In this document: positions 29,194-44,138 of the stretch, one piece after another
Layout of the letters: each line of letters opens with the position of its first letter
Position numbering within the stretch: the first letter of the stretch is position 1
Virus record (IMG/VR): IMGVR_UViG_3300032323_002779
Span: 9,241 to 73,240 of that record
Strand: one strand, 5' to 3'
From: a virus
DNA length: 64,000 nucleotides
Notes under the pieces: generated by a model
Seen by the model: the letters and a program-made list of their open reading frames with translations, nothing else
Databases searched by the model: none
What the model was told of the DNA's origin: nothing
Made by a program: the position numbers and the translations under genes

Positions 29194-29904
29194 ATGGGAA
29201 AGTACACGAAAATAGAGTTTAAAGTACCTGATGTTAATAGAAGTTTTGCGCAGGGAAGTTATAAATATTCAAACCAAAGTGTGATTACGGCAAATACTGC
29301 TTTATTAAAAAAAATAGTCAGCACCTATTCACGCCAAATAAACACTTGGGGAGAAGAATTTGAAATTGATAATTCTATAATTGCGAGTTTTATTGCAACC
29401 GAAAGCGGAGGCAAAAACTCTCCTCCAAATAAATTCGATGCAACAGGTCTTATGCAAGTTACCCCAAATGCAGTTTGGGAAACTATTGCTAAATGGAGAG
29501 TAATGGTAGATTCTCCGTTATCCGAAAAAGCAAAATCTTTTTTCAACAAAGTTATTCCGTCAAGCAAAAATTATAGTCCAAATAAATTGCCAACTTCTGC
29601 TATTAGAAGTGAAATACTTTTGGCATTACAAAAAAATCCTGAATTTAATATCGCAATAGGTACTGCGCTTTTAAGATGGCTTTTAGAAGCATTTAAAGAC
29701 GGAAACACTACTCACTTAAATAAAGTAATGGTTTCTTATAACGCAGGTTACTACTCTATGAGAAATAAAGTCAAAGGCAAATTGACTACGGCAGAATTGC
29801 TTAACAACAAGTCAATTCCTTTTGAAAGCAGAGCGTATCTTTTAAAGATGTTAGGTATAAATGGATTTTTAGATTTGTGGTTTAAGAGTAATATAAACGT
29901 TTAA
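29194..29904 (+). CDS. Lytic transglycosylase (SLT family)
   Basis: IATESGG catalytic Glu, GLMQV and SYNAG motifs. Confidence 0.88.
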   Translation: MGKYTKIEFKVPDVNRSFAQGSYKYSNQSVITANTALLKKIVSTYSRQINTWGEEFEIDNSIIASFIATESGGKNSPPNKFDATGLMQVTPNAVWETIAKWRVMVDSPLSEKAKSFFNKVIPSSKNYSPNKLPTSAIRSEILLALQKNPEFNIAIGTALLRWLLEAFKDGNTTHLNKVMVSYNAGYYSMRNKVKGKLTTAELLNNKSIPFESRAYLLKMLGINGFLDLWFKSNINV

Positions 29905-29914
29905 AATTAAAAAT

Positions 29915-30046
29915 ATGAAAAAAGAGTATGTTATTGGAGGTTTGGCATTAGTAGGCGTTATTGCCTTGTTTGCTTGGTACAGTAAGCCGAAAAAGAACAA
30001 AGAGGGGTTTTATAGCGCAAGTGGTTGCGGTTGTGGAGCAAAATAA
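29915..30046 (+). CDS. MKKEY-leader family peptide 1 (43 aa, ends EGFYSASGCGCGAK), not in the ORF track
   Basis: Translated manually; paralog of 30065 and 42568-43542. Confidence 0.8.
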   Translation: MKKEYVIGGLALVGVIALFAWYSKPKKNKEGFYSASGCGCGAK

Positions 30047-30064
30047 TCATTAAAATCGAATAAA

Positions 30065-30196
30065 ATGAAAAAAGAGTATATCATCGGAGGTTTAGCATTA
30101 GTTGGCATTATTGCCTTGTTTGCTTTTTATACAAAACCAAAAAAGAACAAAGACGGGTTTTATAGCGCAAGTGGTTGCGGTTATGGAGCAAAATAA
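30065..30196 (+). CDS. MKKEY-leader family peptide 2 (43 aa, ends DGFYSASGCGYGAK), not in the ORF track
   Basis: Tandem duplicate of 29915; TAATG overlap with the next gene. Confidence 0.8.
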   Translation: MKKEYIIGGLALVGIIALFAFYTKPKKNKDGFYSASGCGYGAK

Positions 30197-30489
30197 TGGC
30201 TTATAAAATTTTACCATATTCAAAAGCACAGGCGAACAAGTTGGGGGTTGAAATAAAACCCTCAACGAATTCGCTAAAAAAAATTGATGTTTTTAAGAAT
30301 GGTAAAAAAGTCGCTACAATAGGGGCTTTGGGTATGAATGATTATCCAACCTATTTAGAGAAAGAAAAAAAAGGATATTTCCCAAAAGGGTATGCCAAAG
30401 AAAGACGCAGGTTGTATAAACAACGCCACGAAAAAGACCGTCATAAAAGAGGGACAAATGGTTGGTATGCAGACAAAATATTGTGGTAA
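30196..30489 (+). CDS. Basic viral protein, DUF5754-like
   Basis: IG..GMNDY..RR.LY..RH..GWYA..ILW pattern; ATG 30196. Confidence 0.55.
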   Translation: MAYKILPYSKAQANKLGVEIKPSTNSLKKIDVFKNGKKVATIGALGMNDYPTYLEKEKKGYFPKGYAKERRRLYKQRHEKDRHKRGTNGWYADKILW

Positions 30490-31131
30490 ATGGCTTTAAT
30501 ATACGAAGATAAAGTACCCGCTTCTTATAGAAGTGGTTTTGTAAAAAAAGTATCTGAAATTTCAGATAAGATAGGTATTAACCCTAATTGGTTAATGGCT
30601 ATTATGTATTTTGAAAGCGCAAGAACGTTTAGTCCGTCAAAAGGCAATGATATTGGTTGTTACGGTCTTATTCAGTTTTGTCCTGATAGGGGTAAAAATT
30701 ACAAAACTGTCAACGGTAAGCGATACTTAATGTCGGATATTGCTAAAATGGATTATTCCGAGCAATTAGACTTGGTTTACGAATATTACAAGCCATATAC
30801 AGGAAAACTAAAAAGTTACACCGATACATATTTTGTAACATTTTTTCCTTTGGCTATCGGTAAGCCTGATGATTGGATTATTCAGGGCGGAGGTTTTACC
30901 GCAAGACAAATATACAATTCAAACCCTGCTTTTCATCAAGTAAAAGATGGTAAAATTAGGGTTTGGGAAGTAAAGAAAAAGATATTAGAAAAACTACCAA
31001 GCGAATGGGTTAATGAGGGGAGCGTTGGTTTAGCGGTTAAAGCATACAAAAATTATATTGCAGTTGGTATTTTGTCAATTGTAGCGGGGTTAACATTATT
31101 TTATTACACTTATGATAGACGCAGTAAATAA
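30490..31131 (+). CDS. Lysozyme-fold/SLT-like enzyme with C-terminal TM anchor
   Basis: WLMAIMYFES..F.P, GLIQF, EQLD.V..Y; hydrophobic tail. Confidence 0.75.
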   Translation: MALIYEDKVPASYRSGFVKKVSEISDKIGINPNWLMAIMYFESARTFSPSKGNDIGCYGLIQFCPDRGKNYKTVNGKRYLMSDIAKMDYSEQLDLVYEYYKPYTGKLKSYTDTYFVTFFPLAIGKPDDWIIQGGGFTARQIYNSNPAFHQVKDGKIRVWEVKKKILEKLPSEWVNEGSVGLAVKAYKNYIAVGILSIVAGLTLFYYTYDRRSK

Positions 31132-31306
31132 TAGTCAAGGTGCATCTAAAAATGGTCAAATTGACGAAAAAATACAAAAGGACGTAAATAAACAAATCCA
31201 TCAACACTTATCTACAATTTTTGTAGTAGTAGGTATTGTTTCTTTTACATTAGGTGCTATCGTAAATTGGTACACAATCAAAAGGATTAAAGCAGGTAAG
31301 TCGTAA
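31112..31306 (+). CDS. Small membrane protein
   Basis: C-terminal TM followed by basic residues. Confidence 0.7.
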   Translation: MIDAVNNSQGASKNGQIDEKIQKDVNKQIHQHLSTIFVVVGIVSFTLGAIVNWYTIKRIKAGKS

Positions 31307-31731
31307 TGAAAATATTCGGACAGGTTTTAGATGTAGACGGTTTGCCAATGAGTTTGGCTAACATAACTATTACAACAGGGGATAAAGCAGGAAAATTTGG
31401 CGATGAAGCCGACTTGGACGGTAACTTTGTGATAGACGATGCTTCTATTACTCCTGATTCTGAATTTAAAATTTCATACATTGGATATGTCCCTCAATTT
31501 TTCAAAGCGAGTGAACTTCAAGGTAAAAAAATAAAACTAAAGGAGGATATATTTGCTCTTGACGAAGTAATAATTACTTCGGGCGGAGGTAAGCCTAAAG
31601 GCAATTATCCTCAAGTAGTCGCCTCTAAAAAGAACAAATTCGTTCAGCACTTACAAGACCATAAATTTATTTATGCAGGATTAGGTGGTTTAGCAGGTAT
31701 ATTGCTAATTGTTAGAGCGTTAAAAAAATAA
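31306..31731 (+). CDS. CarboxypepD_reg-like domain protein with C-terminal TM
   Basis: I.GQVLD.DG.P...ANI...DLDGNF..ISYIGY..LDEVII, like the SusC N-terminal domain of Bacteroidota. Confidence 0.75.
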   Translation: MKIFGQVLDVDGLPMSLANITITTGDKAGKFGDEADLDGNFVIDDASITPDSEFKISYIGYVPQFFKASELQGKKIKLKEDIFALDEVIITSGGGKPKGNYPQVVASKKNKFVQHLQDHKFIYAGLGGLAGILLIVRALKK

Positions 31732-31737
31732 AAATTT

Positions 31738-32082
31738 ATGGAAAAATATAAATTAAAAGAAGATATAGTTTGGGGTGTTTTACAAAATGGCGAACCAAAT
31801 ATAATTTTCAAAAAAGGAGATGTAATACAAGGCGTAGAAATCGAAAAATTTATTTTTAATAAAATTACTAAAGGAGTTGAGTCAAAACCTACTGTTACAA
31901 GCGCAAAAGTAGAAACATCAGATGGTTTAGCCTTTGTTCCGTTATCAAGTATTGAAAAAATAACTGATACTTCAATCGCAGACGTTCCACCGCAAACATT
32001 TTTACAAAAAAATAAAACCAATTTACTAATAATAGGAGTATTGGTTTTAGGATATTTAGCATATAAAAAATTTAATAAATAA
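31738..32082 (+). CDS. Tail-anchored protein, FKKG/SH3-like family
   Basis: KYKLKED..FKKGDVI..VPLSSIEK; C-terminal TM plus KKFNK. Confidence 0.75.
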   Translation: MEKYKLKEDIVWGVLQNGEPNIIFKKGDVIQGVEIEKFIFNKITKGVESKPTVTSAKVETSDGLAFVPLSSIEKITDTSIADVPPQTFLQKNKTNLLIIGVLVLGYLAYKKFNK

Positions 32083-32088
32083 AATATT

Positions 32089-32421
32089 ATGGAAGCAGAA
32101 GTGGCAGTAGCACCCGTAGCACCCGCACCCGTAGCACCCGCACCCGTAGCACCCGCACCCGTAGCACCGACATCAGGTGGAGGCGGAGATGACGTGTTTG
32201 AAAGTATGGGGTCACAAAAACCAATGGATTTAAAAAGTTTGCTTGTGTTCGGGCTTTTGATTGCATTTTCAATATATGGAATTACATATTATAGAAAGGC
32301 AATTGCCAAACTGAATGACGACAAAAAGCCAAACGAAGATTTCCTTAATTTGGTAGATGACGTAGAGGAAGTGAAATACAATGTTAAAAAAGCATTGGGG
32401 AAAAGATACTCAACAACTTAA
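32089..32421 (+). CDS. Membrane protein with (PVAPA)n N-terminus
   Basis: 15-nt repeat at about 32104-32170; central TM. Confidence 0.75.
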   Translation: MEAEVAVAPVAPAPVAPAPVAPAPVAPTSGGGGDDVFESMGSQKPMDLKSLLVFGLLIAFSIYGITYYRKAIAKLNDDKKPNEDFLNLVDDVEEVKYNVKKALGKRYSTT

Positions 32422-32430
32422 TAAGTAGTT

Positions 32431-32634
32431 ATGGCAACTGAATCAAATAACGGCAAAGCAGTTTTGTTAGCAGTCCCTTTGGGATTTGCCATCTACTCTT
32501 ATTCCAAAGGTTTTAGCATCGGCAAAGGAATATTAGTAACTGTTTTGGGAAGTTTAGCAGTAGGCGTTGCGTTAGGTGTAACAACTGTTGTTTACGGCAC
32601 TTATAAAATTGCCAATAAAGATTATACAAAATAA
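32431..32634 (+). CDS. Small two-TM protein
   Basis: Two hydrophobic segments. Confidence 0.7.
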   Translation: MATESNNGKAVLLAVPLGFAIYSYSKGFSIGKGILVTVLGSLAVGVALGVTTVVYGTYKIANKDYTK

Positions 32635-32658
32635 ACCAAGAAATAACAACAAAGGACT

Positions 32659-32841
32659 ATGGAAAAGAGCAAAGGGTTAGGCGATACCGTAGCAAAAATT
32701 ACTAAATTTACAGGAATTAAAATGATTGTAGATGCGGTAACAGAAGATTGTGGTTGCGAAGCAAGACAAGAGTGGTTAAACGGCAAAGTGCCTTATGACG
32801 GAAAGAACGTTCAGAGAATTTTGAAGTTATTTAAAAAATAA
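32659..32841 (+). CDS. Small phage protein (SKGLGDT..DCGC..RQE.LN)
   Basis: Pattern resembles a common small phage ORF of unknown function. Confidence 0.7.
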   Translation: MEKSKGLGDTVAKITKFTGIKMIVDAVTEDCGCEARQEWLNGKVPYDGKNVQRILKLFKK

Positions 32842-32855
32842 AAACTTTTAAAAAA

Positions 32856-33071
32856 GTGAAAATAAACGAAGTTAGGACAGAAACAATACAAGAATTTCAA
32901 AAAAGCCAAGCGATTAGAATTATTGATGTTTTTGTTATCGCTCCAATTTGCGTTTATGCAGGATTAAAAGGTAAAACTCTGCCAAAACTAATACAATACA
33001 GTTTGATTATTATTGGCATTTCTACTTTTTATTACAATGGGAAAAACTATTTAAAAAACAAAAAAAAATAA
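32856..33071 (+). CDS. Small two-TM protein
   Basis: GTG start; two hydrophobic helices. Confidence 0.65.
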   Translation: MKINEVRTETIQEFQKSQAIRIIDVFVIAPICVYAGLKGKTLPKLIQYSLIIIGISTFYYNGKNYLKNKKK

Positions 33072-33082
33072 AAATAGAAATT

Positions 33083-33220
33083 ATGGCAAAAAAATTAAAC
33101 GGGTATTTCAAGGCAATGTTGGAAGCCAAAAAGAGTAATAAGGCATCATTTACCTACAACGGTAAAACGTATGTAGCATTAAAAACCAAAACAGGTATGA
33201 CTGTTTACAAAGCAAAATAA
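33083..33220 (+). CDS. Small basic protein (45 aa, MAKKLNGYFKAMLEAKK...), possible DNA-binding; not in the ORF track
   Basis: Fills the gap; Lys-rich. Confidence 0.7.
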   Translation: MAKKLNGYFKAMLEAKKSNKASFTYNGKTYVALKTKTGMTVYKAK

Positions 33221-33222
33221 TT

Positions 33223-33477
33223 ATGAAGACAAGAGATTTAGTATTAGTAGGAGCAGGATTGTTAGTAGGCTACCTTTTAGTGGGGTATTTGAATAAATCA
33301 AAAGACAACGCTCAAGGAACAATGGGTTCATCAGATTCAACAGTTGACCAAGCAAAAATTGACGCTTGTAATAAACAAGTAGCGGATTTTATGGCTACTG
33401 CTAAATTTGGGGCAGGTGCAGATTTAGACGCAATTAGAAAAGAGCAGTTTGATGCTTGTATGGCGAAAACCGCTTAA
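33223..33477 (+). CDS. Signal-anchored protein with C-terminal Cys pair
   Basis: N-terminal TM; KID.C...F..CM; paralog of 33490. Confidence 0.75.
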   Translation: MKTRDLVLVGAGLLVGYLLVGYLNKSKDNAQGTMGSSDSTVDQAKIDACNKQVADFMATAKFGAGADLDAIRKEQFDACMAKTA

Positions 33478-33489
33478 TTAAAAAAAAAT

Positions 33490-33819
33490 ATGAACAATAG
33501 AGAGGTAATTTTATTTGGAGTTGGTTTTTTAGTCGGGTATATGGTTATAAGAGCAACAAAAAACAATGTTGTTCTTAATCCTGCAACTCAAAGTCTTCCG
33601 AACACTTATGCTGAAACAATTCCACCTGCAACGGCAGGGACGGTGGCAGGTACTACTCAAATTCAAGAACCTGAAATTGTGGAAACATTAGAAGACCCTA
33701 AAATCGCAGATTGTAAAGAAAAATGGATTAAATTCGCAGAAACAAGAAAATTTGCTTCTGCGGAACAAGAACAAGCGACATACGATAACTTTATGACAAG
33801 TTGCGTAGCGCAATCTTAA
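33490..33819 (+). CDS. Signal-anchored protein with C-terminal Cys pair
   Basis: N-terminal TM; KIADC...KF...FM.SC. Confidence 0.75.
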   Translation: MNNREVILFGVGFLVGYMVIRATKNNVVLNPATQSLPNTYAETIPPATAGTVAGTTQIQEPEIVETLEDPKIADCKEKWIKFAETRKFASAEQEQATYDNFMTSCVAQS

Positions 33820-33829
33820 AAAAACGTAT

Positions 33830-34474
33830 ATGGAGTTTAATGATTTGACATACGGAAATCCTACTCACGACCAATTACAGTTCGTCAAAGAGGCTTGTTT
33901 GGTCGATAATCTATTTGAAACTTTTAAGGATTCGGTTATACCTAAAAATGATTCGGAATTAGTTAAAGAAGAACTTAACGAAATTGCTGACTGTTTAGCG
34001 GTTATTTCTCAACCTGAAAACCAAAATTACCTCAAAAGATATTTGGCTTACGACAGGAATTTAATTCAAGCGTTGTCAAGTATTTTTAAGCAAAAAGATA
34101 TTGAGGTTGAGGAACTAATCACGGAGGTTGTAAAGGATATTCAGAATTTGATTTACAAATTAAAGTTTCACTTTCAAAGACCAAGACCTTTTCAATTGGC
34201 GCAGTATTACAAACTCAAACTTTTTCCTTATAAAAGTTTCTCTGCTCATACACCGTCATACCCGTCAGGGCATACGATTCAAGCAATTGTAATACTTAAT
34301 GTCATCGGAAATAAATATCCAACAGAATACCAATATTGCAAAGAATTAATAGAAGATATTATTTATAGCAGGGTGTATTTAGGGCATCATTTCCCAAGCG
34401 ATAATGACGGCGGAAGAGAAATAGGCAAGGCGATATTAAAAGACCCTGAATTTACCAAGAAATACGGAATTTAA
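33830..34474 (+). CDS. PAP2/haloperoxidase-family phosphatase
   Basis: K..F.RPRP, PSYPSGH and SR...G.HFPSD motifs. Confidence 0.88.
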   Translation: MEFNDLTYGNPTHDQLQFVKEACLVDNLFETFKDSVIPKNDSELVKEELNEIADCLAVISQPENQNYLKRYLAYDRNLIQALSSIFKQKDIEVEELITEVVKDIQNLIYKLKFHFQRPRPFQLAQYYKLKLFPYKSFSAHTPSYPSGHTIQAIVILNVIGNKYPTEYQYCKELIEDIIYSRVYLGHHFPSDNDGGREIGKAILKDPEFTKKYGI

Positions 34475-34497
34475 CAACCAAGAACAAAACAACAACA

Positions 34498-34884
34498 ATG
34501 AAACACGAGGAATATGAATTACAAAAATCGGTAGCCCGTTATTTATCTTACCAATATCCTGACGTTGATTTTTTATCAGATACAATCGCATCTATAAAAC
34601 TAACGGAAAGACAGGCGGGGAGAAATAAACTCATTCAAAAGAACGGGTTTAAATGTCCTGATGTTTTAATTCTTGAACCACGAAAAAACTACTGTGGCTT
34701 ATTTATAGAACTTAAAACAGAAAGCCCTTTTAAAAAAGACGGCACAATTAAGGCTTCTCAAAAAGACCACTTAAAATTACAACACGAATCTTTGCAAAGA
34801 CTATCTTCAAAAGGTTATTGCGCAGAATTTTCGTGGAGTTTTGATATGACCAAAAAAATTATTGACGAATACTTAACAGATTAG
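34498..34884 (+). CDS. VRR-NUC (PD-(D/E)xK) nuclease
   Basis: E..LQ, PDVLI..GLFIELK, Q...L..L...GY. Confidence 0.8.
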   Translation: MKHEEYELQKSVARYLSYQYPDVDFLSDTIASIKLTERQAGRNKLIQKNGFKCPDVLILEPRKNYCGLFIELKTESPFKKDGTIKASQKDHLKLQHESLQRLSSKGYCAEFSWSFDMTKKIIDEYLTD

Positions 34885-34886
34885 AT

Positions 34887-35330
34887 ATGAAACAGGAAAC
34901 TGACAACGTGTCTATGGTCTTTAAGGAATTAGATAAGACGATACAGATTATTGGTGCTGAAAAACTAATTGAAATTTTGAAGTACTCAAGAAAAAATCCC
35001 CCAACACTAAATCAAGAGCAAATTGAAAAAGCGTTGAAATTAGTTCAGGTGGTGTGTGATGAATTTAAAATTTCTTTGGACGACATTTTCGATATGAAGC
35101 GAAAAAACAACCGAAGAATTTCAATAGGCATTTGCGCCTTTGTAATACAGAAACAATTGAATCTTGACAACTCCAACATATCCTATATTTTGAAGAAATC
35201 AGATACTTTAGTATCTTTGTATAAGCAAGAAATTTTACGTTTAAATTCAAACCACCCGTCAGATAGACAAATATTAGAAAAAATTGACAACATTAATGCT
35301 AACATAGATAAATTATTTAAAAATGGTTAA
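34887..35330 (+). CDS. Hypothetical protein with DnaA-C-terminal-like HTH
   Basis: VC.EF.IS..DI...R...R...I...L.K..T.V pattern. Confidence 0.5.
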   Translation: MKQETDNVSMVFKELDKTIQIIGAEKLIEILKYSRKNPPTLNQEQIEKALKLVQVVCDEFKISLDDIFDMKRKNNRRISIGICAFVIQKQLNLDNSNISYILKKSDTLVSLYKQEILRLNSNHPSDRQILEKIDNINANIDKLFKNG

Positions 35331-36417
35331 CCAAGAAAACTTTGAAACAATTGAGGACGCACAAATTATTAATGATGATTTTTCTCCTTTAGACGCACCT
35401 GTAAAACAAAGGTCGTACACACAACACAAAATGGACGATGCTCAATATATGGGCGAATTAGAAGAGCCGTCTTTTGAAAGACCGAGTTTTGCCGACCTTG
35501 ATGGTAGTGCTGAAGAAGAAGCCTCTGAACCCGAAAGACCATTCAACCCGTCTTACAACGAGTTAGACGGTAAAGAGAAAACTATGGGGGCAGAAATGAT
35601 GGCTGAAATGACTTTAGACATCTACGAGAAAGGTTGCTTCTATTTAGGTAAAATCCCTGAAATAAGTGAGGGTAAAATCGATAAGTTAATTGCGGAGGGG
35701 GAAATAGACCCGTCAATCCAACTTCAAACTGAAGCAGGAGCAATGCCAATCAAAGAATTTGCAGTAGAATTTAACGACAGTATAAAAGAAGCGTTTCTTG
35801 TAAGTGATGAATTTAAAGAAAAGGTAAAACCGCCTTTAATTCGTGTGTTCAAAAAGCGTGGTATCGGAATGACTGACGAACAGTTGTTGGCATACTACTT
35901 TGTTACGGATTTAGGCGCAAAGGGCGCACAAGCATTTATGTTGCGTAAAACAACAAATAGCATTATAGATTCTTTAAGAGAGAACACTATGGCTATGAGA
36001 GAAAACCAAATGAATAGCGAAAGACCTCAACCACAGGGTCAGCCTCAACAACAATATCAGGAAAGACCTCCTGTTTATTCAGAACCGTCAACAGATGACG
36101 TTTCCTACACAGATAATATAGCGGAAGTTGTAGAAGAACCTGTAAGCAGAACTCGAAGAAGACCACAAAGAAGTGAACCTAAAACTAATTTAGACGAACA
36201 GTTGGCTTATTTTGAACCTGAAGAACAAGGCGTTTATAGCAACCTTAAAGATAATGGAGGCTTTACAGATGACTTTACAGACGTAGCAGGTATGCCAAAG
36301 TTCGGCGACCCTACAATTCTTTCGGAATTAGAAAGATTAAGTGGCAACGAGCCGACCAAGCCTGTGAGAAAGAGAAGAACTACCGCAGTAAAAAAACCAA
36401 GAGGAGGTAAAAAATAA
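35323..36417 (+). CDS. Acidic/disordered hypothetical protein upstream of the packaging ATPase
   Basis: 364-aa ORF with a basic C-terminus. Confidence 0.75.
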   Translation: MVNQENFETIEDAQIINDDFSPLDAPVKQRSYTQHKMDDAQYMGELEEPSFERPSFADLDGSAEEEASEPERPFNPSYNELDGKEKTMGAEMMAEMTLDIYEKGCFYLGKIPEISEGKIDKLIAEGEIDPSIQLQTEAGAMPIKEFAVEFNDSIKEAFLVSDEFKEKVKPPLIRVFKKRGIGMTDEQLLAYYFVTDLGAKGAQAFMLRKTTNSIIDSLRENTMAMRENQMNSERPQPQGQPQQQYQERPPVYSEPSTDDVSYTDNIAEVVEEPVSRTRRRPQRSEPKTNLDEQLAYFEPEEQGVYSNLKDNGGFTDDFTDVAGMPKFGDPTILSELERLSGNEPTKPVRKRRTTAVKKPRGGKK

Positions 36418-36419
36418 TT

Positions 36420-36536
36420 ATGGCTACCAATTTGACGAATAATAAAAACAACAATAACAACTCTTTGTGGGTTGTTTTGTTGGTATTCGTGATTTGGTTT
36501 ATTGTATTTATTTTTAAACTAAAACAACAAATGTAA
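36420..36536 (+). CDS. Small membrane protein (38 aa), not in the ORF track
   Basis: MATNLTNNKNNNNNSLWVVLLVFVIWFIVFIFKLKQQM fills the gap before the ATPase. Confidence 0.6.
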   Translation: MATNLTNNKNNNNNSLWVVLLVFVIWFIVFIFKLKQQM

Positions 36537-36537
36537 T

Positions 36538-37353
36538 ATGGAGATTAGAGAACCAAAATTAGGAGTTGCGGTAGGTAGGAAAGGTTGCGGAAAGACCTAC
36601 ACTACTACTAAAATGATTAAACAATACGTTTTAGGAAATCCCTCAAGAGGTGTTCCTGCAAGACGTGCATTAATTCTTGATGTTAATGATGAATTTGAAG
36701 ACATTAAAGCATTAAAACAATCGGACATAGTTAGATTTTCGGCGCACCCTAAAATTGAAGCGAGAAGAATTAGACCGTTTCACGACAACGGTGTTAGAAT
36801 GACTTTAAGAGAAATACAAGAAGTACTATTTAAAATATTAAACGATTACAGGGGTGGATTATTACTTATCGAAGACATTAACCGCTACGTTAGTGACTAC
36901 TTACCGAATGACCTTGTTGGTGCAATCTGTACTAACAGACACACGGACACAGACATTATTCTTCACTTTCAGTCCATAGGGCGTATTTCGCCTAAAATTT
37001 GGCAGAATTTGAATTGGATTAGATTTCATAAAATCACAGATGATGTAATCAAGCACAGGAATAAGTTTGAGGAAAAATTAGAGTTACTGCTATTGGTTGA
37101 GGCATACATCAACACACAATACGAAGAGGGCGATAAAAGGGTTTTTACCTACGTTGATATTGATGACGAAAAGGTTTTGGTAAAAGACAAGGCGAGGTTT
37201 CAAAAAATAATTGAAAACTACCTTATTGCCAATCAAAAGAAATTATTAGTACCTTTAACGGTTAAAAATCCGCTTATCTCTGCGAAGCCTATGACGCTTG
37301 AGGGTGCTTTAAAACACAAAACACAATTGCTTATGAAGCAATATGTCGGATAA
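36538..37353 (+). CDS. FtsK-HerA superfamily genome-packaging ATPase (A32/PRD1 P9-like)
   Basis: VAVGRKGCGKT Walker A near the N-terminus, LILD.N.E, LLLIED Walker B, NRH arginine finger, hhhQ motif; about 270 aa with no nuclease domain. Confidence 0.75.
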   Translation: MEIREPKLGVAVGRKGCGKTYTTTKMIKQYVLGNPSRGVPARRALILDVNDEFEDIKALKQSDIVRFSAHPKIEARRIRPFHDNGVRMTLREIQEVLFKILNDYRGGLLLIEDINRYVSDYLPNDLVGAICTNRHTDTDIILHFQSIGRISPKIWQNLNWIRFHKITDDVIKHRNKFEEKLELLLLVEAYINTQYEEGDKRVFTYVDIDDEKVLVKDKARFQKIIENYLIANQKKLLVPLTVKNPLISAKPMTLEGALKHKTQLLMKQYVG

Positions 37354-37378
37354 ACATTAACCATTAAATTAACAGACT

Positions 37379-37741
37379 ATGAGAAAGTTTTTAGTTAAAA
37401 ATTTTGTGCTTGACTACCAAATCAAGTTATTTGGAAAATGCTACAACGCTCCGAGAGCAAGTAGAATAATTTTTCCGCTTTTTGTAATTACGGGAACGGC
37501 AAACGCTTTAAACGACAACTTTCCTACGCCAACAACCTTAATATGGGTTTTATATGCTCTAACTGTTTTGGCTTTGTTTTTCGGGTTTGTTTATTTCCAT
37601 ATTTATCCTGTAAAATTTTCAGAACTTGACAATTATCAAAAATTGCTTTACGGTTTTGTTGCTTTTGAACGGCTTACAAAAGACGAAATCAAAGAATGGG
37701 AAGAAATAAGAAAAGAATACGAATTAACGACTAATTGTTAA
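37379..37741 (+). CDS. Two-TM membrane protein
   Basis: Two hydrophobic helices. Confidence 0.7.
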   Translation: MRKFLVKNFVLDYQIKLFGKCYNAPRASRIIFPLFVITGTANALNDNFPTPTTLIWVLYALTVLALFFGFVYFHIYPVKFSELDNYQKLLYGFVAFERLTKDEIKEWEEIRKEYELTTNC

Positions 37742-37822
37742 TATTTTTTTTATTTTTGAAAAATAATATTTCCAAACCAAGAAACTTTAATTAACTGAAT
37801 ATTAATCAATAAAATTAAAGTT

Positions 37823-38098
37823 ATGGAAAAAAATAAACAAGAAAGATGGTTTTTGACAAAGTTTTTTTGTGAAAAATCAGAGCCAAGTTCCAAAAGACTT
37901 GTTGGTATAGTTGGGGCTTTTACATTATTCGCAACACTTTTTGCAAATAGTTTTACTCACGTTGATAATGCGCCAAGCGACACTTTAGTTCAAGCAGTCG
38001 CATTTTTATCTTTTGGAGCATTAGGTATTACAGGTTTTGAAAGGATATTTTCAAAAAAAGAGCCTGTTTCTAAAAACGAAGAAAACTCTCCTGAATAA
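37823..38098 (+). CDS. Putative holin
   Basis: SSKRL followed by two TMs, directly upstream of the endolysin. Confidence 0.6.
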   Translation: MEKNKQERWFLTKFFCEKSEPSSKRLVGIVGAFTLFATLFANSFTHVDNAPSDTLVQAVAFLSFGALGITGFERIFSKKEPVSKNEENSPE

Positions 38099-38126
38099 TA
38101 AAAAAAACAACTAAAAAATAAAAATT

Positions 38127-38591
38127 ATGAAATTATCAGAGCATTTATCATTGTCAGAAGTTACTCGAAGCGATATGGCAAAAAGAAAGGGCATTAGCAA
38201 TATGCCGACACCTGAACACATTGAGAACTTTAAAAAATTGGCAGAAAATATTTTTGAGCCAATTCGTAAACATTTTGGAGTTCCAATATTTGTATCGTCA
38301 GGGTACAGAAGCAAGGCACTCAATACTGCTATCGGCGGAAGTTTGTCAAGCCAACATTGTCAGGGCGAAGCAATTGACATCGATATGGACGGTAGCGCAA
38401 ATGGAGTTACAAACAAAATGGTTTTTGATTACATCAAAGCCCATTTAAACTTTGACCAATTAATTTGGGAGTTTGGAACTAAAGACAATCCTGATTGGGT
38501 ACACGTTTCTTACGAATCCACAGGAAAGCAACGTAAACAAGTTTTAAGAGCAATAAAAAGCGGAGGAAAAACTACTTATCAGCCTTATTAG
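38127..38591 (+). CDS. Peptidase M15 endolysin
   Basis: SSGYRS..LN..IGG...SQH..GEA.D and WVHVSY zinc-binding motifs. Confidence 0.9.
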   Translation: MKLSEHLSLSEVTRSDMAKRKGISNMPTPEHIENFKKLAENIFEPIRKHFGVPIFVSSGYRSKALNTAIGGSLSSQHCQGEAIDIDMDGSANGVTNKMVFDYIKAHLNFDQLIWEFGTKDNPDWVHVSYESTGKQRKQVLRAIKSGGKTTYQPY

Positions 38592-38593
38592 TA

Positions 38594-38989
38594 ATGGAAA
38601 ACGTAAAAAACGTCCTGTCAAATAAGATGACATTATTAATGATAATGATTTGTCTTGTTTTTTGCTTTCAAGTATTCAACTTGTTTAGTAACGGTACTGA
38701 ATCTGTAAAGGTAGATTATATCAAAAAGGAAATAAACGGCTTAAAAGATGACGTAAACGAAATCCATAAGTCGGAAAAGGCTTTAGACAAAAAAATAGAT
38801 ACTTTTAATTATCAAATTAAAAACATACACGAAGCAGTTACCATAAATAACACGAAAATTGAAAACCTTAAAAAATATGAAAAAGTTCAAAATGATAAGT
38901 TTAAGTCTTATGATGCTCGTATGTGGGAGAAGTATTTCGCAGACCGTTACGCCTCAAAAATTACCAACTCCACAGAAACAAGAGAATAG
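38594..38989 (+). CDS. Putative spanin-like protein (N-terminal TM plus coiled coil)
   Basis: Follows the endolysin and overlaps the next gene. Confidence 0.5.
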   Translation: MENVKNVLSNKMTLLMIMICLVFCFQVFNLFSNGTESVKVDYIKKEINGLKDDVNEIHKSEKALDKKIDTFNYQIKNIHEAVTINNTKIENLKKYEKVQNDKFKSYDARMWEKYFADRYASKITNSTETRE

Positions 38990-39320
38990 TGTTGTCATAG
39001 ACACGACTGTCGCAAGACTAATAGCCAAAGACCTTGTTAGCGGAGATGTTTGTAAGCAGGAAATAAAGTTAGTTAGGAGCAATTTGGCTTTAACCAAGAA
39101 AGAAGTTGTTTTCAAAGACAGTATTATTAACACGTTAAGTATTCAAAAAGATAAACTTAATTTGATTATCTCAAAGAAAGACGAAATGTTTACCAAGCAA
39201 GAGGAAATTTCTAATACATACAAAAAGGCACTTTCAAAGCAAAAGACAACAACCTTTCTTTACAAAGCATTATCCTTGTTAGGTGTAATTTCCACCACAC
39301 TACTTATAATTAAACCATAA
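38877..39320 (+). CDS. Putative second spanin-like component (signal peptide, coiled coil, C-terminal TM)
   Basis: Overlaps 38594 in another frame; ATG 38877 gives MKKFKMISLSLMMLVCGRSISQ; lipobox weak. Confidence 0.45.
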   Translation: MKKFKMISLSLMMLVCGRSISQTVTPQKLPTPQKQENSVVIDTTVARLIAKDLVSGDVCKQEIKLVRSNLALTKKEVVFKDSIINTLSIQKDKLNLIISKKDEMFTKQEEISNTYKKALSKQKTTTFLYKALSLLGVISTTLLIIKP

Positions 39321-39325
39321 AAACG

Positions 39326-39354
39326 AAGCGCACCAATACGGTGCGTTTTTTTTT
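39326..39354 (+). terminator. Rho-independent terminator
   Basis: aagcgcacc-aatac-ggtgcgttt hairpin followed by a T-run. Confidence 0.85.
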
Positions 39355-39436
39355 GCGCAATTAATTTAAAATAGTTTAAAAAAAATTTGTTTAAGATAAA
39401 GTAGGCATTAACTTATCATCAATGTAGTTTATATTA

Positions 39437-39444
39437 TAAATTTG
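39437..39444 (+). promoter_or_regulatory. Bacteroidota -7 promoter element for the capsid-candidate unit
   Basis: TAAATTTG in the intergenic region; -33 element unclear. Confidence 0.5.
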
Positions 39445-39508
39445 GCTTGATATTATTTCTGTAAATAATTATCATTAAAAATAAGTTTAATCGAAAAATC
39501 ATTCTGTA

Positions 39509-39637
39509 ATGAAAAACGAAATTGTTCCTTTACTAAAAAGTGTTGCCGTAGTTGTTGTAGGTGTGTTAATTGCGAATTATGTTCAGACAACATTGTTAGC
39601 AAAGAAAGTTGACGCTCCTGCTGATGCAAAAATGTAA
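39509..39637 (+). CDS. Small membrane protein (42 aa, MKNEIVPLLKSVAVVVVGVLIANYVQ...), not in the ORF track
   Basis: Single TM; lies between the promoter element and the capsid candidate. Confidence 0.75.
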   Translation: MKNEIVPLLKSVAVVVVGVLIANYVQTTLLAKKVDAPADAKM

Positions 39638-39692
39638 TTTGGTGTCAAACCGAGTTTAGAAAAAAGTTATTAAATCATAAAAATTAATCAAA

Positions 39693-40394
39693 ATGTCAAA
39701 CGTAAGAAGATATTTAAGCAACGCACGTCAGAGTGCAATGGAATCTTTCTCAAATGCTGACGGATTCATCGACCAAGACTTGTCTTTCACAGGCGATGAT
39801 TTCTTCCGTGCAGATGGAGGAATGTCTATGGGTGGAGATATTCAAACATCTCAACCGTATATTATCAACGTGACTTCTACTTCAGGGTCAGCAGTTGCTA
39901 ATTTTGACGTATTAGGTTCATACCAATACATCAACAACGCAGGTTTCCAAACAAACGGAAACTTGATTATCGGTTCTGTAACTATTAGTTCAGGAATCCC
40001 TAACATTACATACCAAGAGATGTTGTATCAGTTTATGAACAACCCGTATTCTGTTGGTTTAACTTACATTCAATCTGCTACTGCTAACCAAGTGTTACAA
40101 ACATTGGCGGTTAACACACGAGATGCGAATGGTAACTTGGCGCAAAAGACTTTAGTGCCTACAATCGACCCATATCAGCAACAAACTACAATTATTGCGA
40201 TGAAGTATGCTTACAGAATTGATGGTTTCACAAAAATCACAATTGCTCAAGTGTTAGCAAATGCTACTGTATCGTTATACTTCTATCCTGCTGATAACAT
40301 CAACCTTGCGAGAGCATTAGGTGGACAACCTGTAAGCAGACAATTCGGTACGCCTCCTGTAACTAATGGTCAAACCATTAAGTTAAGAGCGTAA
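39693..40394 (+). CDS. Candidate major capsid protein (beta-rich, possibly jelly-roll) with N-terminal extension ending FFRADGG
   Basis: Bounded by two terminators; C-ending codons (TTC/ATC/AAC/TAC) enriched against the AT-rich background; beta-strand-rich, no TM; near the packaging ATPase. Confidence 0.55.
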   Translation: MSNVRRYLSNARQSAMESFSNADGFIDQDLSFTGDDFFRADGGMSMGGDIQTSQPYIINVTSTSGSAVANFDVLGSYQYINNAGFQTNGNLIIGSVTISSGIPNITYQEMLYQFMNNPYSVGLTYIQSATANQVLQTLAVNTRDANGNLAQKTLVPTIDPYQQQTTIIAMKYAYRIDGFTKITIAQVLANATVSLYFYPADNINLARALGGQPVSRQFGTPPVTNGQTIKLRA

Positions 40395-40432
40395 TTATCA
40401 GCAATGATATAACGAATTAATGTATAATTTAG

Positions 40433-40470
40433 AAAGAGAGCAAGTGATTCATTTCTACTTGCTCTTTTTT
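40433..40470 (+). terminator. Rho-independent terminator
   Basis: agagcaagt...acttgctct hairpin followed by a T-run. Confidence 0.8.
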
Positions 40471-40488
40471 GCTTAAAAACAAAAAATT

Positions 40489-40917
40489 ATGAACGTATTC
40501 AGATATGTTGCAGAGTCTAATCCAAATGGCGCAGTACAGATAATCAATTCTTTCGGTTATGATGTTACAAGCACCTCTGATTTAGGTAAAAGTTTGAGTG
40601 AGTTAGTAGCCGAAGTAGGAGAACCTGCTTTCAAAAAGGTTATGGACAACCACCCTGACAAAGATGTTATTTTAGAATTATACGGAAGCGATATTACCAA
40701 AGATAAAGAAGAGAAAACTTGCGGTTGCGACTTTTGTCGAAATAGGTATAGAGCCGTAGAGCATTTACAGTATCTTAACGCCACAGGTAGTGGTACTTTC
40801 GCAGACGAAAAACCAAGTGGTTCTAACACAAATACACATTTATTGGCTAACCAAACAAACGTTATTTTAGTCGTTTCTGCTTTGTTCATAGCAACTGCAT
40901 TAATCTTAAAAAAATAA
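40489..40917 (+). CDS. Helical-domain protein with CGCDFC, YLNATG motif and C-terminal TM
   Basis: ORF; tail anchor plus KK. Confidence 0.8.
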   Translation: MNVFRYVAESNPNGAVQIINSFGYDVTSTSDLGKSLSELVAEVGEPAFKKVMDNHPDKDVILELYGSDITKDKEEKTCGCDFCRNRYRAVEHLQYLNATGSGTFADEKPSGSNTNTHLLANQTNVILVVSALFIATALILKK

Positions 40918-40922
40918 AAAAA

Positions 40923-41642
40923 ATGGCAAAAACAGTCAAACCAACGATTGAAACGGGAGCAATGACTTTAGTCTTGCTTGTTAAGTATTACAAAAGCCAA
41001 ATGATTGCTTTATTGTTGAAGAATGGAGTTACTGTACCAAGAGGGGCTTCTGACCAACAAATCGCAATGCTTATGGCTAATTTATTAAAAGTGTCAAAAT
41101 CATTTTTTGTTGATTTGAACAATTTTATTCAAAATCCAAAAGTTATTGAAACTCTTGCGGGAGGAATGACGCAAACCGCCGAATACTTTAAAATGAGTGG
41201 AAACGCTCAATATTTTAGAATGAGTGGAAATGCTCAATATTTTAAAATGAGCGGAAAGGGCTATATGAATAGCACAGGCGGAGAAGACGGTTTTACAGAC
41301 ACAGGAGAACCTGCACCGTCAGGAACGCCAATAAAAGATAAAGAGGGTTTTTGGTCAAACCTTAATTTCGGAAATTTATTTTCTCAAGCATTAGGTGCTT
41401 TTGGACAGTTTAACACTAACCAAGCCAACGTTGCTATTGCTAATGCTCACGCACAATCACAACAAGCAGGTTCAGACGTAGGTTCAGGTGGAGTCACAGG
41501 TGGAGGCGCAGGTGGAAGCACAAGTTCAGGGAAAAAAACTCCTGAAAAGGGAATGTCAACAACTACAATTGTAGTATTGAGTTTGTTGGGTGTTGCCGTA
41601 ATAGGAACAATTATCTACTTCGTAGCAAAACCTAAAGAATAA
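40923..41642 (+). CDS. Helical domain, (YF[KR]MSG)x3, Q/N/A/G-rich segment and C-terminal TM
   Basis: ORF with an internal 27-nt repeat. Confidence 0.8.
   Translation: MAKTVKPTIETGAMTLVLLVKYYKSQMIALLLKNGVTVPRGASDQQIAMLMANLLKVSKSFFVDLNNFIQNPKVIETLAGGMTQTAEYFKMSGNAQYFRMSGNAQYFKMSGKGYMNSTGGEDGFTDTGEPAPSGTPIKDKEGFWSNLNFGNLFSQALGAFGQFNTNQANVAIANAHAQSQQAGSDVGSGGVTGGGAGGSTSSGKKTPEKGMSTTTIVVLSLLGVAVIGTIIYFVAKPKE
41184..41255 (+). repeat. 27-nt repeat (three copies, the last partial) encoding YF[KR]MSG(NAQ)
   Basis: tactttaaaatgagtggaaacgctcaa / tattttagaatgagtggaaatgctcaa / tattttaaaatgagcgga. Confidence 0.9.
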
Positions 41643-41654
41643 AAACAAACAGTT

Positions 41655-41882
41655 ATGGTTATTGATGAACAAATGTTGTCAAAAATAATTGGGTCTTCTG
41701 TTGGAATGTACCCAAATGATGTAGCGGATATGCTTGTTCGTAATAACGTACTTGCACCCGCACCTGATTACACGCTAAACCAATTGGTAGAGGGTGTTTT
41801 TGTTGGTTTAAATCAAAACCCAAGTTTTACTCAAGAGTATGGTTCTTGGTTAGAGCAAATCGTAACTACATTAACTTTTTAA
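41655..41882 (+). CDS. Stand-alone helical domain resembling the N-terminus of 40923
   Basis: V.D.L.RN.V.....L...V...L.....F pattern. Confidence 0.7.
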   Translation: MVIDEQMLSKIIGSSVGMYPNDVADMLVRNNVLAPAPDYTLNQLVEGVFVGLNQNPSFTQEYGSWLEQIVTTLTF

Positions 41883-41892
41883 ATATATAGAT

Positions 41893-42201
41893 ATGGCTTG
41901 GGATTGGGGAGGAATAGTTAAGTCGATAGCACCTGCTCTTGTAGGTTTTGGGACAAGTATGATTGTCAATAATCAAAACGTCAAAAACGCACAAGGTCAA
42001 GCAAACGCAACTCAAAATGCACTTAATCAGCAATATCAAATTGCTTTGCAAAATCAGCAAAACATAAAATTGATGCAACAGGCAGGTCAAGCACCTCCTG
42101 AAAAAGAAAAAAGCAATTTACCTCTTTACATAGGTTTAGGTGTTGGCGGAGTAGTATTACTTGGAGTTGTAATATTTGCGGTCACACGGAGGTCTAATTA
42201 A
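41893..42201 (+). CDS. Q/N/A-rich tail-anchored protein
   Basis: Amphipathic N-terminus, Q-rich coil, C-terminal TM. Confidence 0.8.
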   Translation: MAWDWGGIVKSIAPALVGFGTSMIVNNQNVKNAQGQANATQNALNQQYQIALQNQQNIKLMQQAGQAPPEKEKSNLPLYIGLGVGGVVLLGVVIFAVTRRSN

Positions 42202-42214
42202 TTAAACATCTATT

Positions 42215-42430
42215 ATGCAAAATTTTATAGCGGAAGCAAAGGCAATTGCGAGTAAAGACAAAAGAGAAGTTCTTATGGTAACTACAAGAGCATCAGTTAA
42301 TGGTGCGGTTACGGGACTTGTTTTAGGTCTTATGCTTGGATATTGGAAAAACAAAAACGTTTATGTAACGGGTCTTGTGGGTGCTATTATTGGTGGCGTT
42401 GCTACAAGCATTATAGTTAACAAAAAATAA
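42215..42430 (+). CDS. Small two-TM glycine-zipper protein
   Basis: GxxxG-rich helices. Confidence 0.75.
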   Translation: MQNFIAEAKAIASKDKREVLMVTTRASVNGAVTGLVLGLMLGYWKNKNVYVTGLVGAIIGGVATSIIVNKK

Positions 42431-42437
42431 ATCAAAA

Positions 42438-42548
42438 ATGAAAAAACCAAATATTTTAATGGCGGTAGTAGGATTAGTAGTTTCTATTGGAGTTATTTAT
42501 GGCTACACATACGTTATAGGAAAGTCTTGGAAAGCAAGTCAAAAATAA
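42438..42548 (+). CDS. Small membrane protein (36 aa, ends GKSWKASQK), not in the ORF track
   Basis: TM; resembles 43587 (GRAWKKSQ). Confidence 0.7.
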   Translation: MKKPNILMAVVGLVVSIGVIYGYTYVIGKSWKASQK

Positions 42549-42567
42549 TCTAACTTTTTAAATCAAA

Positions 42568-42990
42568 ATGAAAAAAGAGTATATCATCGGAGGTTTAGCA
42601 CTATTAGGCGTTATTGGGGTTATTTCTTATTTGAGAAAACCAAAGAGAAATTCAGAGGGCTTTTATAATGCGGTAGGAACAAAAACGGCAGGAAATATTC
42701 GACCGTTCCCGACAAAACAAGAGGTTTGTAATTTGCCTAATAATTTTGTTAGACAAGTAGTTACTAATAACAATGGCGTGACTAAAACTTTTTGTGGTAG
42801 ATACGATAGGGTTGTAACTATGACTCCAACAGGTAAAGGGTTTCAATATAGATTACGACCTGAAATTCCAAATGCAACTTTTGTGAATGGTGGTTTTGTA
42901 AATTCAAACGGAACAAGTATTGTTACAACATTTCAAATAATTAGTGGTTCTGATTATGAATCCGCATTTATAAATGGACAATACTGTTAA
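42568..42990 (+). CDS. MKKEY-leader family protein 3
   Basis: Constant leader to EGFYNAVG, then a variable domain with 3 Cys. Confidence 0.8.
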   Translation: MKKEYIIGGLALLGVIGVISYLRKPKRNSEGFYNAVGTKTAGNIRPFPTKQEVCNLPNNFVRQVVTNNNGVTKTFCGRYDRVVTMTPTGKGFQYRLRPEIPNATFVNGGFVNSNGTSIVTTFQIISGSDYESAFINGQYC

Positions 42991-43017
42991 AAAACATTAA
43001 TCAATAAATCAAAAAAA

Positions 43018-43278
43018 ATGAAGAAAGAGTATATCATCGGAGGTTTAGCACTATTAGGCGTTATTGGGGTTGTTTCTTATTTGAGAAAACCAAAGAGAAA
43101 TTCAGAGGGTTTTTTCGGAGCGTCAGGTAGAGGCAGTTCGATAAGAAGAGTTTCAAGTCAAAATTGCGCTTGGTGCAAAACGAATGACGGAACTATTTAT
43201 CACACAGGAGGCGACAGAAATTGTAGCGCAGGAGATAGATGTATCACAAGATACGCTTTTTCTAAAGGCATTAATTAA
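43018..43278 (+). CDS. MKKEY-leader family protein 4
   Basis: Leader to EGFFGASG, then CxxC...C...GDRC. Confidence 0.8.
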   Translation: MKKEYIIGGLALLGVIGVVSYLRKPKRNSEGFFGASGRGSSIRRVSSQNCAWCKTNDGTIYHTGGDRNCSAGDRCITRYAFSKGIN

Positions 43279-43296
43279 TCATTAAAATCAAATAAA

Positions 43297-43542
43297 ATGA
43301 AAAAAGAGTATATCATCGGAGGTTTAGCCTTGTTAGGCATTATTGGGGTTGTTTCTTATTTAAGAAAACCAAAAAGAAATTCAGAGGGCTTCTTTGGAGC
43401 AAGTGGAAGAACGAGTACAGGAGGTTGTAGAGTTTGTGAGGGCGGAAGCAGTAATTATTTTGCCGTTTATGGTCAATGCAGACGAGGCGACAGATGTTTA
43501 CAAACTGTAAAACAGTTTACTCAAGCGCAAAGTATGGATTAA
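43297..43542 (+). CDS. MKKEY-leader family protein 5
   Basis: Leader to EGFFGASG, then CxxC...C..GDRC. Confidence 0.8.
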   Translation: MKKEYIIGGLALLGIIGVVSYLRKPKRNSEGFFGASGRTSTGGCRVCEGGSSNYFAVYGQCRRGDRCLQTVKQFTQAQSMD

Positions 43543-43586
43543 GAACTTTTGTTAAAAAAAACATTAATAAAATAAAATTTAAGAAT

Positions 43587-43721
43587 ATGGACAATTTTTA
43601 TGACAATCAAAAAAAGGCGAGTACAACAGATAAATTGATTTACATTGGGGTATCAGCGGTAGTTGTATTTGGATTGGTTTATCTTGTAGGTCGTGCTTGG
43701 AAAAAAAGTCAAACTGCATAA
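43587..43721 (+). CDS. Small membrane protein (44 aa)
   Basis: ATG 43587 preferred over the 43476 track start; TM. Confidence 0.7.
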   Translation: MDNFYDNQKKASTTDKLIYIGVSAVVVFGLVYLVGRAWKKSQTA

Positions 43722-43727
43722 TTAATT

Positions 43728-44135: not shown

Positions 44136-44138
44136 ATT

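Follow-up and report, generated by a model that had tools for sequence, protein, structure and literature searches.

The locus studied here raises the question of why five small genes of one virus begin in the same way and then become unrelated to each other. These genes lie in a stretch of 64,000 nucleotides (nt), referred to below as the window, which corresponds to positions 9241–73240 of the 73,240-bp IMG/VR record IMGVR_UViG_3300032323_002779. An earlier note on this DNA, made from the sequence alone, had proposed a leader-plus-variable-core design comparable to that of precursors of bacteriocins or of ribosomally synthesized and post-translationally modified peptides (RiPPs), or to displayed variable peptides. 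The results described below make a different account moderately probable in our judgment: the five products would be single-pass membrane proteins of the virion module, each composed of a constant part that serves as anchor and address and of an exchangeable module.

The five open reading frames (ORFs), all on the + strand and numbered here as members 1 to 5 in the order of their occurrence (Table 1), were recovered, and the alignment of their proteins confirmed the common front end of 37 residues claimed in the earlier note as well as the lack of relationship beyond it. Twenty-one of the first 37 positions were invariant (M1, K2, K3, E4, Y5, I7, G8, G9, L10, A11, L12, G14, I16, K24, P25, K26, N28, G31, F32, A35, and G37), and the likeness ended after G37. 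The endings also read as had been described, namely CGCGAK, CGYGAK, a domain of ~100 amino acids (aa) and two minidomains of the type C-x2-C...C-x3-D-x-C. When the five leaders were aligned as DNA together with the 30 nt upstream, the mean column identity was 78%, and the leader of member 2 was 87% identical to that of member 1 at this level. A profile built from the leader recovered all five members among the ORFs of at least 25 aa in the window and the related loci (E values from ~9e-22 to 5e-26).

The same profile was compared with 1.84 billion representative sequences, giving 78 matches at E ≤ 1e-3, 54 of them at E ≤ 1e-10. The matching proteins were 40–208 aa long, and the leader was N-terminal in all of them except three off-family repeat proteins. 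Five related records contained between 0 and 7 family matches each at E ≤ 0.01. The five genes look real, as judged from their being kept in related viruses. No PHROGs family matched any of the five members; Pfam gave nothing above the cut-off for the three longer ones, with a sub-threshold zf-CCCH match for the 81-aa member 5 only, and the ESM Atlas gave no usable match for the 140-aa member 3. Within the whole 73,240-bp record, the five members and one marginal match (E 0.013, window 33241–33345) were detected. The source of the latter is the gene at 33223–33477, which adjoins another one of similar design at 33490–33819; in both, an N-terminal helix leads into a basic stretch, then into a linker, and finally into a helical end bracketed by Cys.

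After MKKEY, the leader continues with a stretch of 17 hydrophobic residues in which Gly and Ala abound, and it ends with [RST]-K-P-K-[KR]-N-[SK]-[ED]-G-F-[FY]-x-A-x-G. Mean Kyte-Doolittle hydropathy in a 17-residue window was between 2.2 and 2.5 in each of the five proteins, and the AlphaFold2 (AF2) model of the 86-aa member 4, made with 42 aligned relatives, contained a helix at residues 4–22, a disordered segment at 23–49 and a three-stranded sheet at 50–78. For a broader view, 207 sequences were pooled (113 + 15 from homology searches plus the ORFs in the loci), of which 204 were split at the junction and 183 were unique; the split used a pattern of its own, which fixes part of the consensus reported below. 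The hydrophobic helix has charged flanks, as in single-pass (bitopic) membrane proteins: over these 183 members the mean was +1.1 before the helix and +2.5 after it, and the flank after the helix was the more positive one in 170 of them. The sequence [RSTK]KPK[KR]N follows the helix directly, so that four basic residues come at once. Direct reading of residues 18–30 of the leaders revealed neither Cys nor a small-x-small site, and hence no lipobox. Since a hydrophobic helix is followed immediately by basic residues and carries neither of these cleavage signals, the leader looks like an uncleaved membrane anchor, and neither like a secretory signal nor like a soluble RiPP leader. The leaders of members 4 and 5 differ at 15 of 111 nt, with 11 codons changed only synonymously versus one changed non-synonymously; the leader peptide itself is under strong constraint.

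These properties bear on the RiPP proposal, according to which maturation enzymes would recognize the leader and cleave it off at its G-x-A-x-G end, so that modified Cys-rich peptides are set free. The leaders of RiPPs are soluble and depend on a cognate maturase. The leader of this family is instead a transmembrane helix with four basic residues behind it, the cores reach ~170 aa, the genes are always found within the particle-building block and the junction motif is common to structural proteins (see below); these points stand against the constancy of the leader, its sharp junction ending in Gly, the small Cys- or Tyr-rich ends (CGCGAK, SYYK, AYYKR), and the presence of two junction motifs in the pooled sequences P0075, P0136, and P0147, as in multi-core precursors. 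The junction ends in A-x-G, unlike a double-glycine leader. Neither radical SAM and YcaO proteins nor Peptidase_C39 were found on four virus records (G000, G002, G004, and G005) or on the 132-kb contig C9 of G001, records that may be fragments, and the Pfam scans of the ORFs of the record analyzed here contained no maturase families. Therefore, the constant front and variable back seen in the earlier note stood, and the analogy with RiPPs or bacteriocins, given the transmembrane leader, the missing maturases and the length of the cores, did not; that the family consists of such precursors is hardly probable, the least so of the explanations considered.

The likeness noticed earlier between the junction and the FSNADG sequence of a capsid candidate was borne out, as the motif was enriched over shuffled sequences and its sites in the candidate were conserved across 18 relatives. 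Counts were made on the 90 non-overlapping + strand ORFs of the window. The pattern [DE]-x-F-[FY]-x-A-x-G had six sites, versus 0.06 in the shuffles, namely the five members and DDFFRADG in the N-terminal arm of the capsid candidate. The wider pattern [FY]-x-[NGS]-A-x-G had eight sites, versus 2.1 in the shuffles, and added SFSNADG in the same arm, QYLNATG in a second protein (p142), and one site in a fibre-like protein. Both arm sites (SFSNADG at residues 19–24 and DDFFRADG at 35–42) were invariant or nearly so in the 18 sequences. Of 34 distinct relatives of p142, 24 had the motif at the corresponding position, and the neighboring p239 had one to four motif-like copies in 25 of the 28 relatives listed, the number varying, in both cases with a looser pattern. 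The motif is thus shared by the five members, the capsid candidate (two sites), p142, and p239, and is conserved in their relatives. In p142 and p239 it stands in the bulk domain before the C-terminal anchor, and in both AF2 models, those of the capsid candidate and of member 4, it falls in unstructured segments of low confidence. The tandem units of p239 precede a Gly/Ser-rich stretch, which is followed by a C-terminal anchor ending in KPKE.

Relatives of the capsid candidate were present on 37 viral loci (contigs of 7–102 kb). Its AF2 model, with a predicted local distance difference test score (pLDDT) of 55.6, consisted of a beta sandwich at residues 54–200 and a disordered arm of ~53 residues with pLDDT below 50. 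The best structural matches were nucleoplasmin cores and viral jelly rolls (Z 5–6.3), so that the jelly-roll identity of this protein is suggestive only. A Foldseek search of BFVD gave uninformative template-modeling scores (TM-scores) of at most 0.3, and a sequence search against solved structures returned nothing below E 0.4.

The sharing of the motif also concerns a second alternative, that the genes encode lysis or membrane-perturbing peptides (holin-, antiholin-, or pinholin-like) that were duplicated and then diverged. A length of 41–86 aa, one transmembrane helix, a charged C-terminal side and the muralytic genes nearby (the SLT-type gene starting at 29194 and the M15 peptidase) would suit such peptides. 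Nevertheless, no PHROG lysis family matched, up to seven copies occur with unrelated modules of up to 170 aa, the motif is common to the capsid candidate, and the conservation of the helix far exceeds what a generic pore-former needs, so that a role in lysis is very improbable.

The part behind the junction was analyzed by clustering the 145 cores of at least 12 aa, with x-A-x-G trimmed beforehand. They fell into 18 clusters, ten of them with at least two members and the largest with 42, 35, 17, and 13. The proteins of 86 and 81 aa (members 4 and 5) belong to the two largest. Their minidomains aligned with each other and with 40 relatives, C-x2-C...C-x5-C being invariant in the 42 sequences, as were C50, C53, C69, D73, and C75, and the strands of the minidomain in the AF2 model of member 4 had a pLDDT of ~80. 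With regard to a zinc ribbon or knuckle, a fold search of this model against 48,161 chains returned a single match at Z 2.1, and classes with two Cys exist. Several of these two-Cys classes resemble C-basic-basic-x-[DN]-G-[ST]-x-x-Y...C and may be stripped versions of the four-Cys hairpin. Among the short tails that recur, (G)(G)CGCGA(K), a class conserved in relatives, was together with its near variants by far the most frequent; SYY[KR], KTI-x-AYY[KR]R, and MYGY came next. Relatives also carry helical domains of ~150 aa behind the same leader (P0144, P0154, P0163, P0170, and P0172), with no counterpart in the window. Another pooled sequence, P0146, has two copies of the Cys-bracketed domain.

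The earlier note had called the C-termini hypervariable and had named homology continuing through them in relatives as the observation that would refute it. Such homology was found: the first 30 matches to member 4 covered 92–100% of its length, and the cores form the 18 clusters described above. The ratio of non-synonymous to synonymous differences per site (pN/pS) was 0.23–0.49 for leaders, 0.52–0.70 for cores within classes and 0.09 for the CGCG tail, values that are rough because pS was near saturation (0.36–0.66). Amino-acid change within classes was therefore about twice as high in cores as in leaders, with pN/pS still below 1. Because of this last point, hypervariable is the wrong word, and the variety is, on the sequences compared, a variety of discrete modules.

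To see how this variety is arranged, the DNA of the downstream array (members 3–5) was compared with seven close relatives (L022, L024, L025, L027, L028, L029, and L059). Collinear homology stopped at window positions 42664–42669, that is, at codons 33–34 of the first leader, in L022, L024, L025, L027, and L059, and continued through the first core to 43115 in L028 and L029, which have the core of member 3 in common with the window at 77–78% nt identity. In all seven relatives it restarted at 43552–43573, just beyond the last member. Inside the array, the cross-matches to many sites in each relative were mostly stretches of ~60–140 nt with spacer and leader, and a few longer high-scoring segment pairs (66–79% identity) spanned from one leader to the next. 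L059 has a single short member, ending in GFYGMNGSYYR, at the place of the three downstream members of the window, and a four-Cys member at the place of its first CGCGAK gene. Furthermore, the core of member 4 was found unchanged behind a different leader in P0004, neighboring genes of different core class often have one leader type in common, and a second junction motif follows the first core in P0075 and in P0038, the latter from a 529-nt contig that may be chimeric. The breakpoints in the relatives lie at the junction, and the DNA comparison indicates that the variety arises by cassette swapping through recombination there.

Freshwater contigs from four runs, compared with 41800–44200, break at the leader repeats. 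Two apparent joints in them, considered as deletions, are better read as cross-matches to the upstream site or as short contigs, and one contig has other letters replacing the leader of member 4; none of these contigs was used for any claim. A diversity-generating retroelement was ruled out because no reverse transcriptase was present: RVT_1 was absent from the four virus records, and the only match in G001 was on another contig, C41.

Taken as single-pass membrane proteins of the particle-building block, the five products would work as follows. The constant 37 residues would form a handle made of a transmembrane helix (the anchor), a basic juxtamembrane stretch and a short motif, aromatic-x-G/N/S-A/M-x-G, and would direct the protein to the viral membrane or to the assembly site. 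One viral factor would read the motif, and would either dock the proteins into the assembling particle or cut them there. After the motif would come a flexible linker and then the exchangeable module, which is a GCGCGA(K) tail, a four- or two-Cys beta-hairpin minidomain or a ~100-aa domain in the window and, in relatives, also one of the helical domains of ~150 aa. Recombination at the junction would generate new combinations, the DNA of the leader serving as the repeated handle. Since the flank after the helix is the more positive one and the other copies of the motif lie on proteins or domains without export signals, the positive-inside rule would place the modules on the cytoplasmic, capsid-facing side, as with those other copies. 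The tandem copies in p239 and the second motifs in some members would fit either docking or cutting. Of all these elements, the data show the anchor, the sharing of the motif, the discrete classes of modules and the breakpoints at the junction, and the reader, any cutting, the topology and the functions of the modules are proposed.

The candidate for this factor is a protein with an HExxH motif encoded a few genes downstream, the one HExxH protein found in the block. Its HEF[AS]H and E-x-EAD sequences were retained in all 34 matches in the loci and were invariant in the alignment (A6), and the protein could possibly be the reader or cutter of the motif. Its likeness to Pfam families was sub-threshold only (SprT-like in 5 of 14 sequences, M48 in 2 of 14), and the ESM Atlas returned unnamed viral clusters only, with leads under 0.85 to DUF4344 and M48. 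Prediction of a complex between this protein and residues 22–86 of member 4 scored 0.00 in two runs made without controls. As for enzymes of known virion processing, the virus records yielded no clan CE (C48) peptidase, and the Pfam and PHROGs scans revealed none of the known families of prohead proteases.

The display of the modules on the other side of the membrane is a serious rival to this account, from which it differs chiefly in topology. The helix would then be an uncleaved signal-anchor with its N-terminus inside, and disulfide-stapled modules would be located either in the periplasm or at the outer or lumenal surface of the viral membrane, with functions in entry, interaction with the host surface, or exclusion of rival phages. 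The number of Cys is even in 168 of the 183 cores and whole classes hold just two, a pattern that suits disulfides, and hence export of the module, more than it does a zinc site in the cytoplasm. The two-Cys classes retain the inner pair of the four-Cys pattern, the ~100-aa domains carry Cys near both ends, the Ser/Thr/Arg-rich linkers are stalk-like, the upstream site lies between the two muralytic-type genes listed in Table 1, and turnover is fast among close relatives. However, the basic cluster comes right after the helix, with the charge bias given above, and the motif is also present on the capsid candidate and in the bulk domains of p142 and p239, which have no signal peptide; one reader could not reach both sides of a membrane. 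The part of the earlier proposal that spoke of displayed variable peptides is a possible one, and exported display as a whole is unlikely.

Besides the Cys pattern, several other observations weigh against the proteins being virion-module anchors with a motif that is read. The viral membrane itself is a presumed one, the data agreeing with a large, tailless, membrane-lined virus but falling short of proof. Of the 37 loci to which the capsid candidate led, just 11 contain a family member at E ≤ 1e-8, and therefore either viruses of this group do not generally need the family, or it has diverged past the reach of the leader profile. Outside the family the motif gains one to three sites in the window, and its significance leans on conservation in relatives. 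The HExxH protein reached no Pfam threshold, its profile found nothing below E 0.4 among solved structures by sequence search, and its tie to the motif consists of position and conservation alone. Exchange is, moreover, not free, since the leaders partly track the core class: mean leader identity was highest within one class across contigs (0.73), lower between classes that share a contig (0.66) and lowest where neither class nor contig was shared (0.61). To these points is added the roughness of the pN/pS values mentioned above.

The genes around the family are collected in Table 1.

Table 1. Features of the window named in the text, with positions counted from its first nucleotide.
Feature	Position	Strand	Remarks
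Member 1 (43 aa)	29915–30046	+	Upstream site; leader and tail CGCGAK; leader profile E 1.8e-22
Member 2 (43 aa)	30065–30196	+	Upstream site; leader and tail CGYGAK; leader profile E 9e-22
Member 3 (140 aa)	42568–42990	+	Downstream site; leader and Cys-bracketed ~100-aa domain; core cluster 6
Member 4 (86 aa)	43018–43278	+	Leader, Ser/Arg-rich linker, four-Cys minidomain; core cluster 0
Member 5 (81 aa)	43297–43542	+	Leader, short linker, four-Cys minidomain; core cluster 1
Jelly-roll capsid candidate (233 aa)	39693–40394	+	Motif twice in N-terminal arm
p142 (142 aa), C-terminal transmembrane segment	40489–40917	+	Motif QYLNATG at residue 95
p239 (239 aa), C-terminal transmembrane segment	40923–41642	+	Three tandem YF[KR]MSG and YMNSTG
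HExxH protein (261 aa)	45132–45917	+	HEF[AS]H...E-x-EAD
P-loop ATPase	36538–37353		Weak terminase-type PHROG match
SLT-type muralytic gene	29194–29904		Pfam/PHROGs
Second muralytic-type (SLT-type) gene	30490–31131		Pfam/PHROGs
M15 peptidase	38127		Pfam/PHROGs
Zeta-toxin-like kinase	277–1224		Pfam
ART-PolyVal protein	2127–3119		Pfam
Giant ORFs (1897, 2781, and 1417 aa)	3659–9352, 15150–23495, 23508–27761		ART-PolyVal, DUF5661, and DUF2958 pieces

The sizeable ORFs of the window are all on the + strand, its guanine-plus-cytosine (GC) content is ~34%, and one transmembrane segment was predicted in 29 of the 46 ORFs between 27.7 and 46.9 kb. The Pfam and PHROGs scans gave no significant match to tailed-phage head, portal, or tail families, with the sole exception of the weak terminase-type match of the P-loop ATPase, for which a sequence search against solved structures found nothing below E 0.4. 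Megablast of window 28000–45000 against 50,697 phage records gave zero matches, and among the sequencing runs no RNA data set was listed as containing the sequence. Genes named by Pfam are few in the record: the Zeta-toxin-like kinase, ART-PolyVal, SLT, PAP2, M15, and sugar-modifying enzymes, the last of these in the first 9 kb of the record.

Further observations were made on this setting. The three giant ORFs, the kinase and the neighboring ART-PolyVal protein make up a set of the "polyvalent protein" type in a virus without detected tail genes. A PAP2-type lipid phosphatase (33830–34474, Pfam) lies inside the block of small membrane proteins, and one of these, at 32089–32421, begins with a run of (APV) repeats. 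Between 60001 and 64000 the GC content rises to 0.40 from ~0.34 across two large ORFs (686 aa, and an open-ended one of 608 aa); these have weak matches to beta-roll and adhesin repeats and are possibly fibres.

A relative at 80–88% nt identity sits on the 132-kb contig, whose additional flanks of 45 and 21 kb (GC 31–32%) are viral as well, with RecT, an RNase_T exonuclease, HNH, a DNA methylase, NT5C, and DUF285. The 73-kb record is rated 100% complete, yet this relative has viral flanks (L059, L062–L067). Since these flanks are viral too, the record is probably a fragment of a much larger genome, likely of at least 132 kb. This contig, the only named relative, is binned with a Sediminibacterium genome; the evidence for this host is the binning alone.

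Several known systems resemble the one described here. Internal proteins of phage T4 carry a capsid-targeting sequence that is removed by the prohead protease gp21. The likeness consists in a short N-terminal address on unrelated, fast-evolving cargo, used in T4 together with the processing of the coat. The T4 tag, however, is soluble, has ~10 residues and its cutting is proven, whereas here a transmembrane helix is included, the motif comes after it and cutting is only proposed. Adenovirus protease acts on sites of the forms (M/I/L)-x-G-G|x and (M/I/L)-x-G-x|G in several virion precursors. There, too, several structural proteins carry one short motif with Gly in their flexible parts, and the coats are of the jelly-roll type; the consensus here is instead the aromatic-x-G/N/S-A/M-x-G given above, and the candidate enzyme is an HExxH protein and not a C48 peptidase.

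Conserved front ends joined to diverse Cys-rich back ends in multigene families are also a trait of RiPPs of the prochlorosin/Nif11 type and of the toxin superfamilies of cone snails. The signal peptides of conotoxins are animal secretory signals that undergo cleavage. The front end described here differs from both in being an anchor that is seemingly kept, and no maturase was found for it. Phages of the PRD1, PM2, and Bam35 types (PMC6356626) resemble the present virus in that numerous tiny single-pass proteins are encoded near a packaging-type ATPase and a jelly-roll coat gene. In these phages, we know neither of a family of paralogs in which one leader is joined to interchangeable ends nor of a shared linear motif. 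Another difference lies in the genome, which here measures no less than 73 kb and probably 132 kb or more. Among the listings and abstracts searched, there was no account of a family like this one, nor of viruses with this size and type.

Comparison with T4 and adenovirus suggests that the logic of tag plus cargo is a known one, and that the fusion of the tag to a transmembrane helix, the multigene cassette array and the undescribed lineage would be new. The T4 comparison can be carried further, at a strength that we would call doubtful and below that of exported display. By means of a two-part loading code (anchor plus cleavage tag), the virus would pack a changeable set of cargo, consisting of small basic peptides rich in Cys and of larger modules, into the space between membrane and shell. 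The HExxH protein would release this cargo by cutting at the motif, along with the coat arm, and the modules would pass into the host together with the DNA and act there in takeover or anti-defence. If true, this would be the membrane-virus counterpart of the targeting-sequence and internal-protein system of T4, with the cargo swapped by recombination at the tag.

To our knowledge, how membrane-containing bacterial viruses choose their membrane proteins is unsolved. A handle of anchor plus motif that is present in a multigene family, in the coat candidate and in other membrane proteins would provide a testable sorting or processing signal. Additionally, since near-identical viruses exchange the modules in the manner of cassettes, these probably have a part in the conflict between virus and host, in a lineage of abundant, uncultured, freshwater bacterial viruses.

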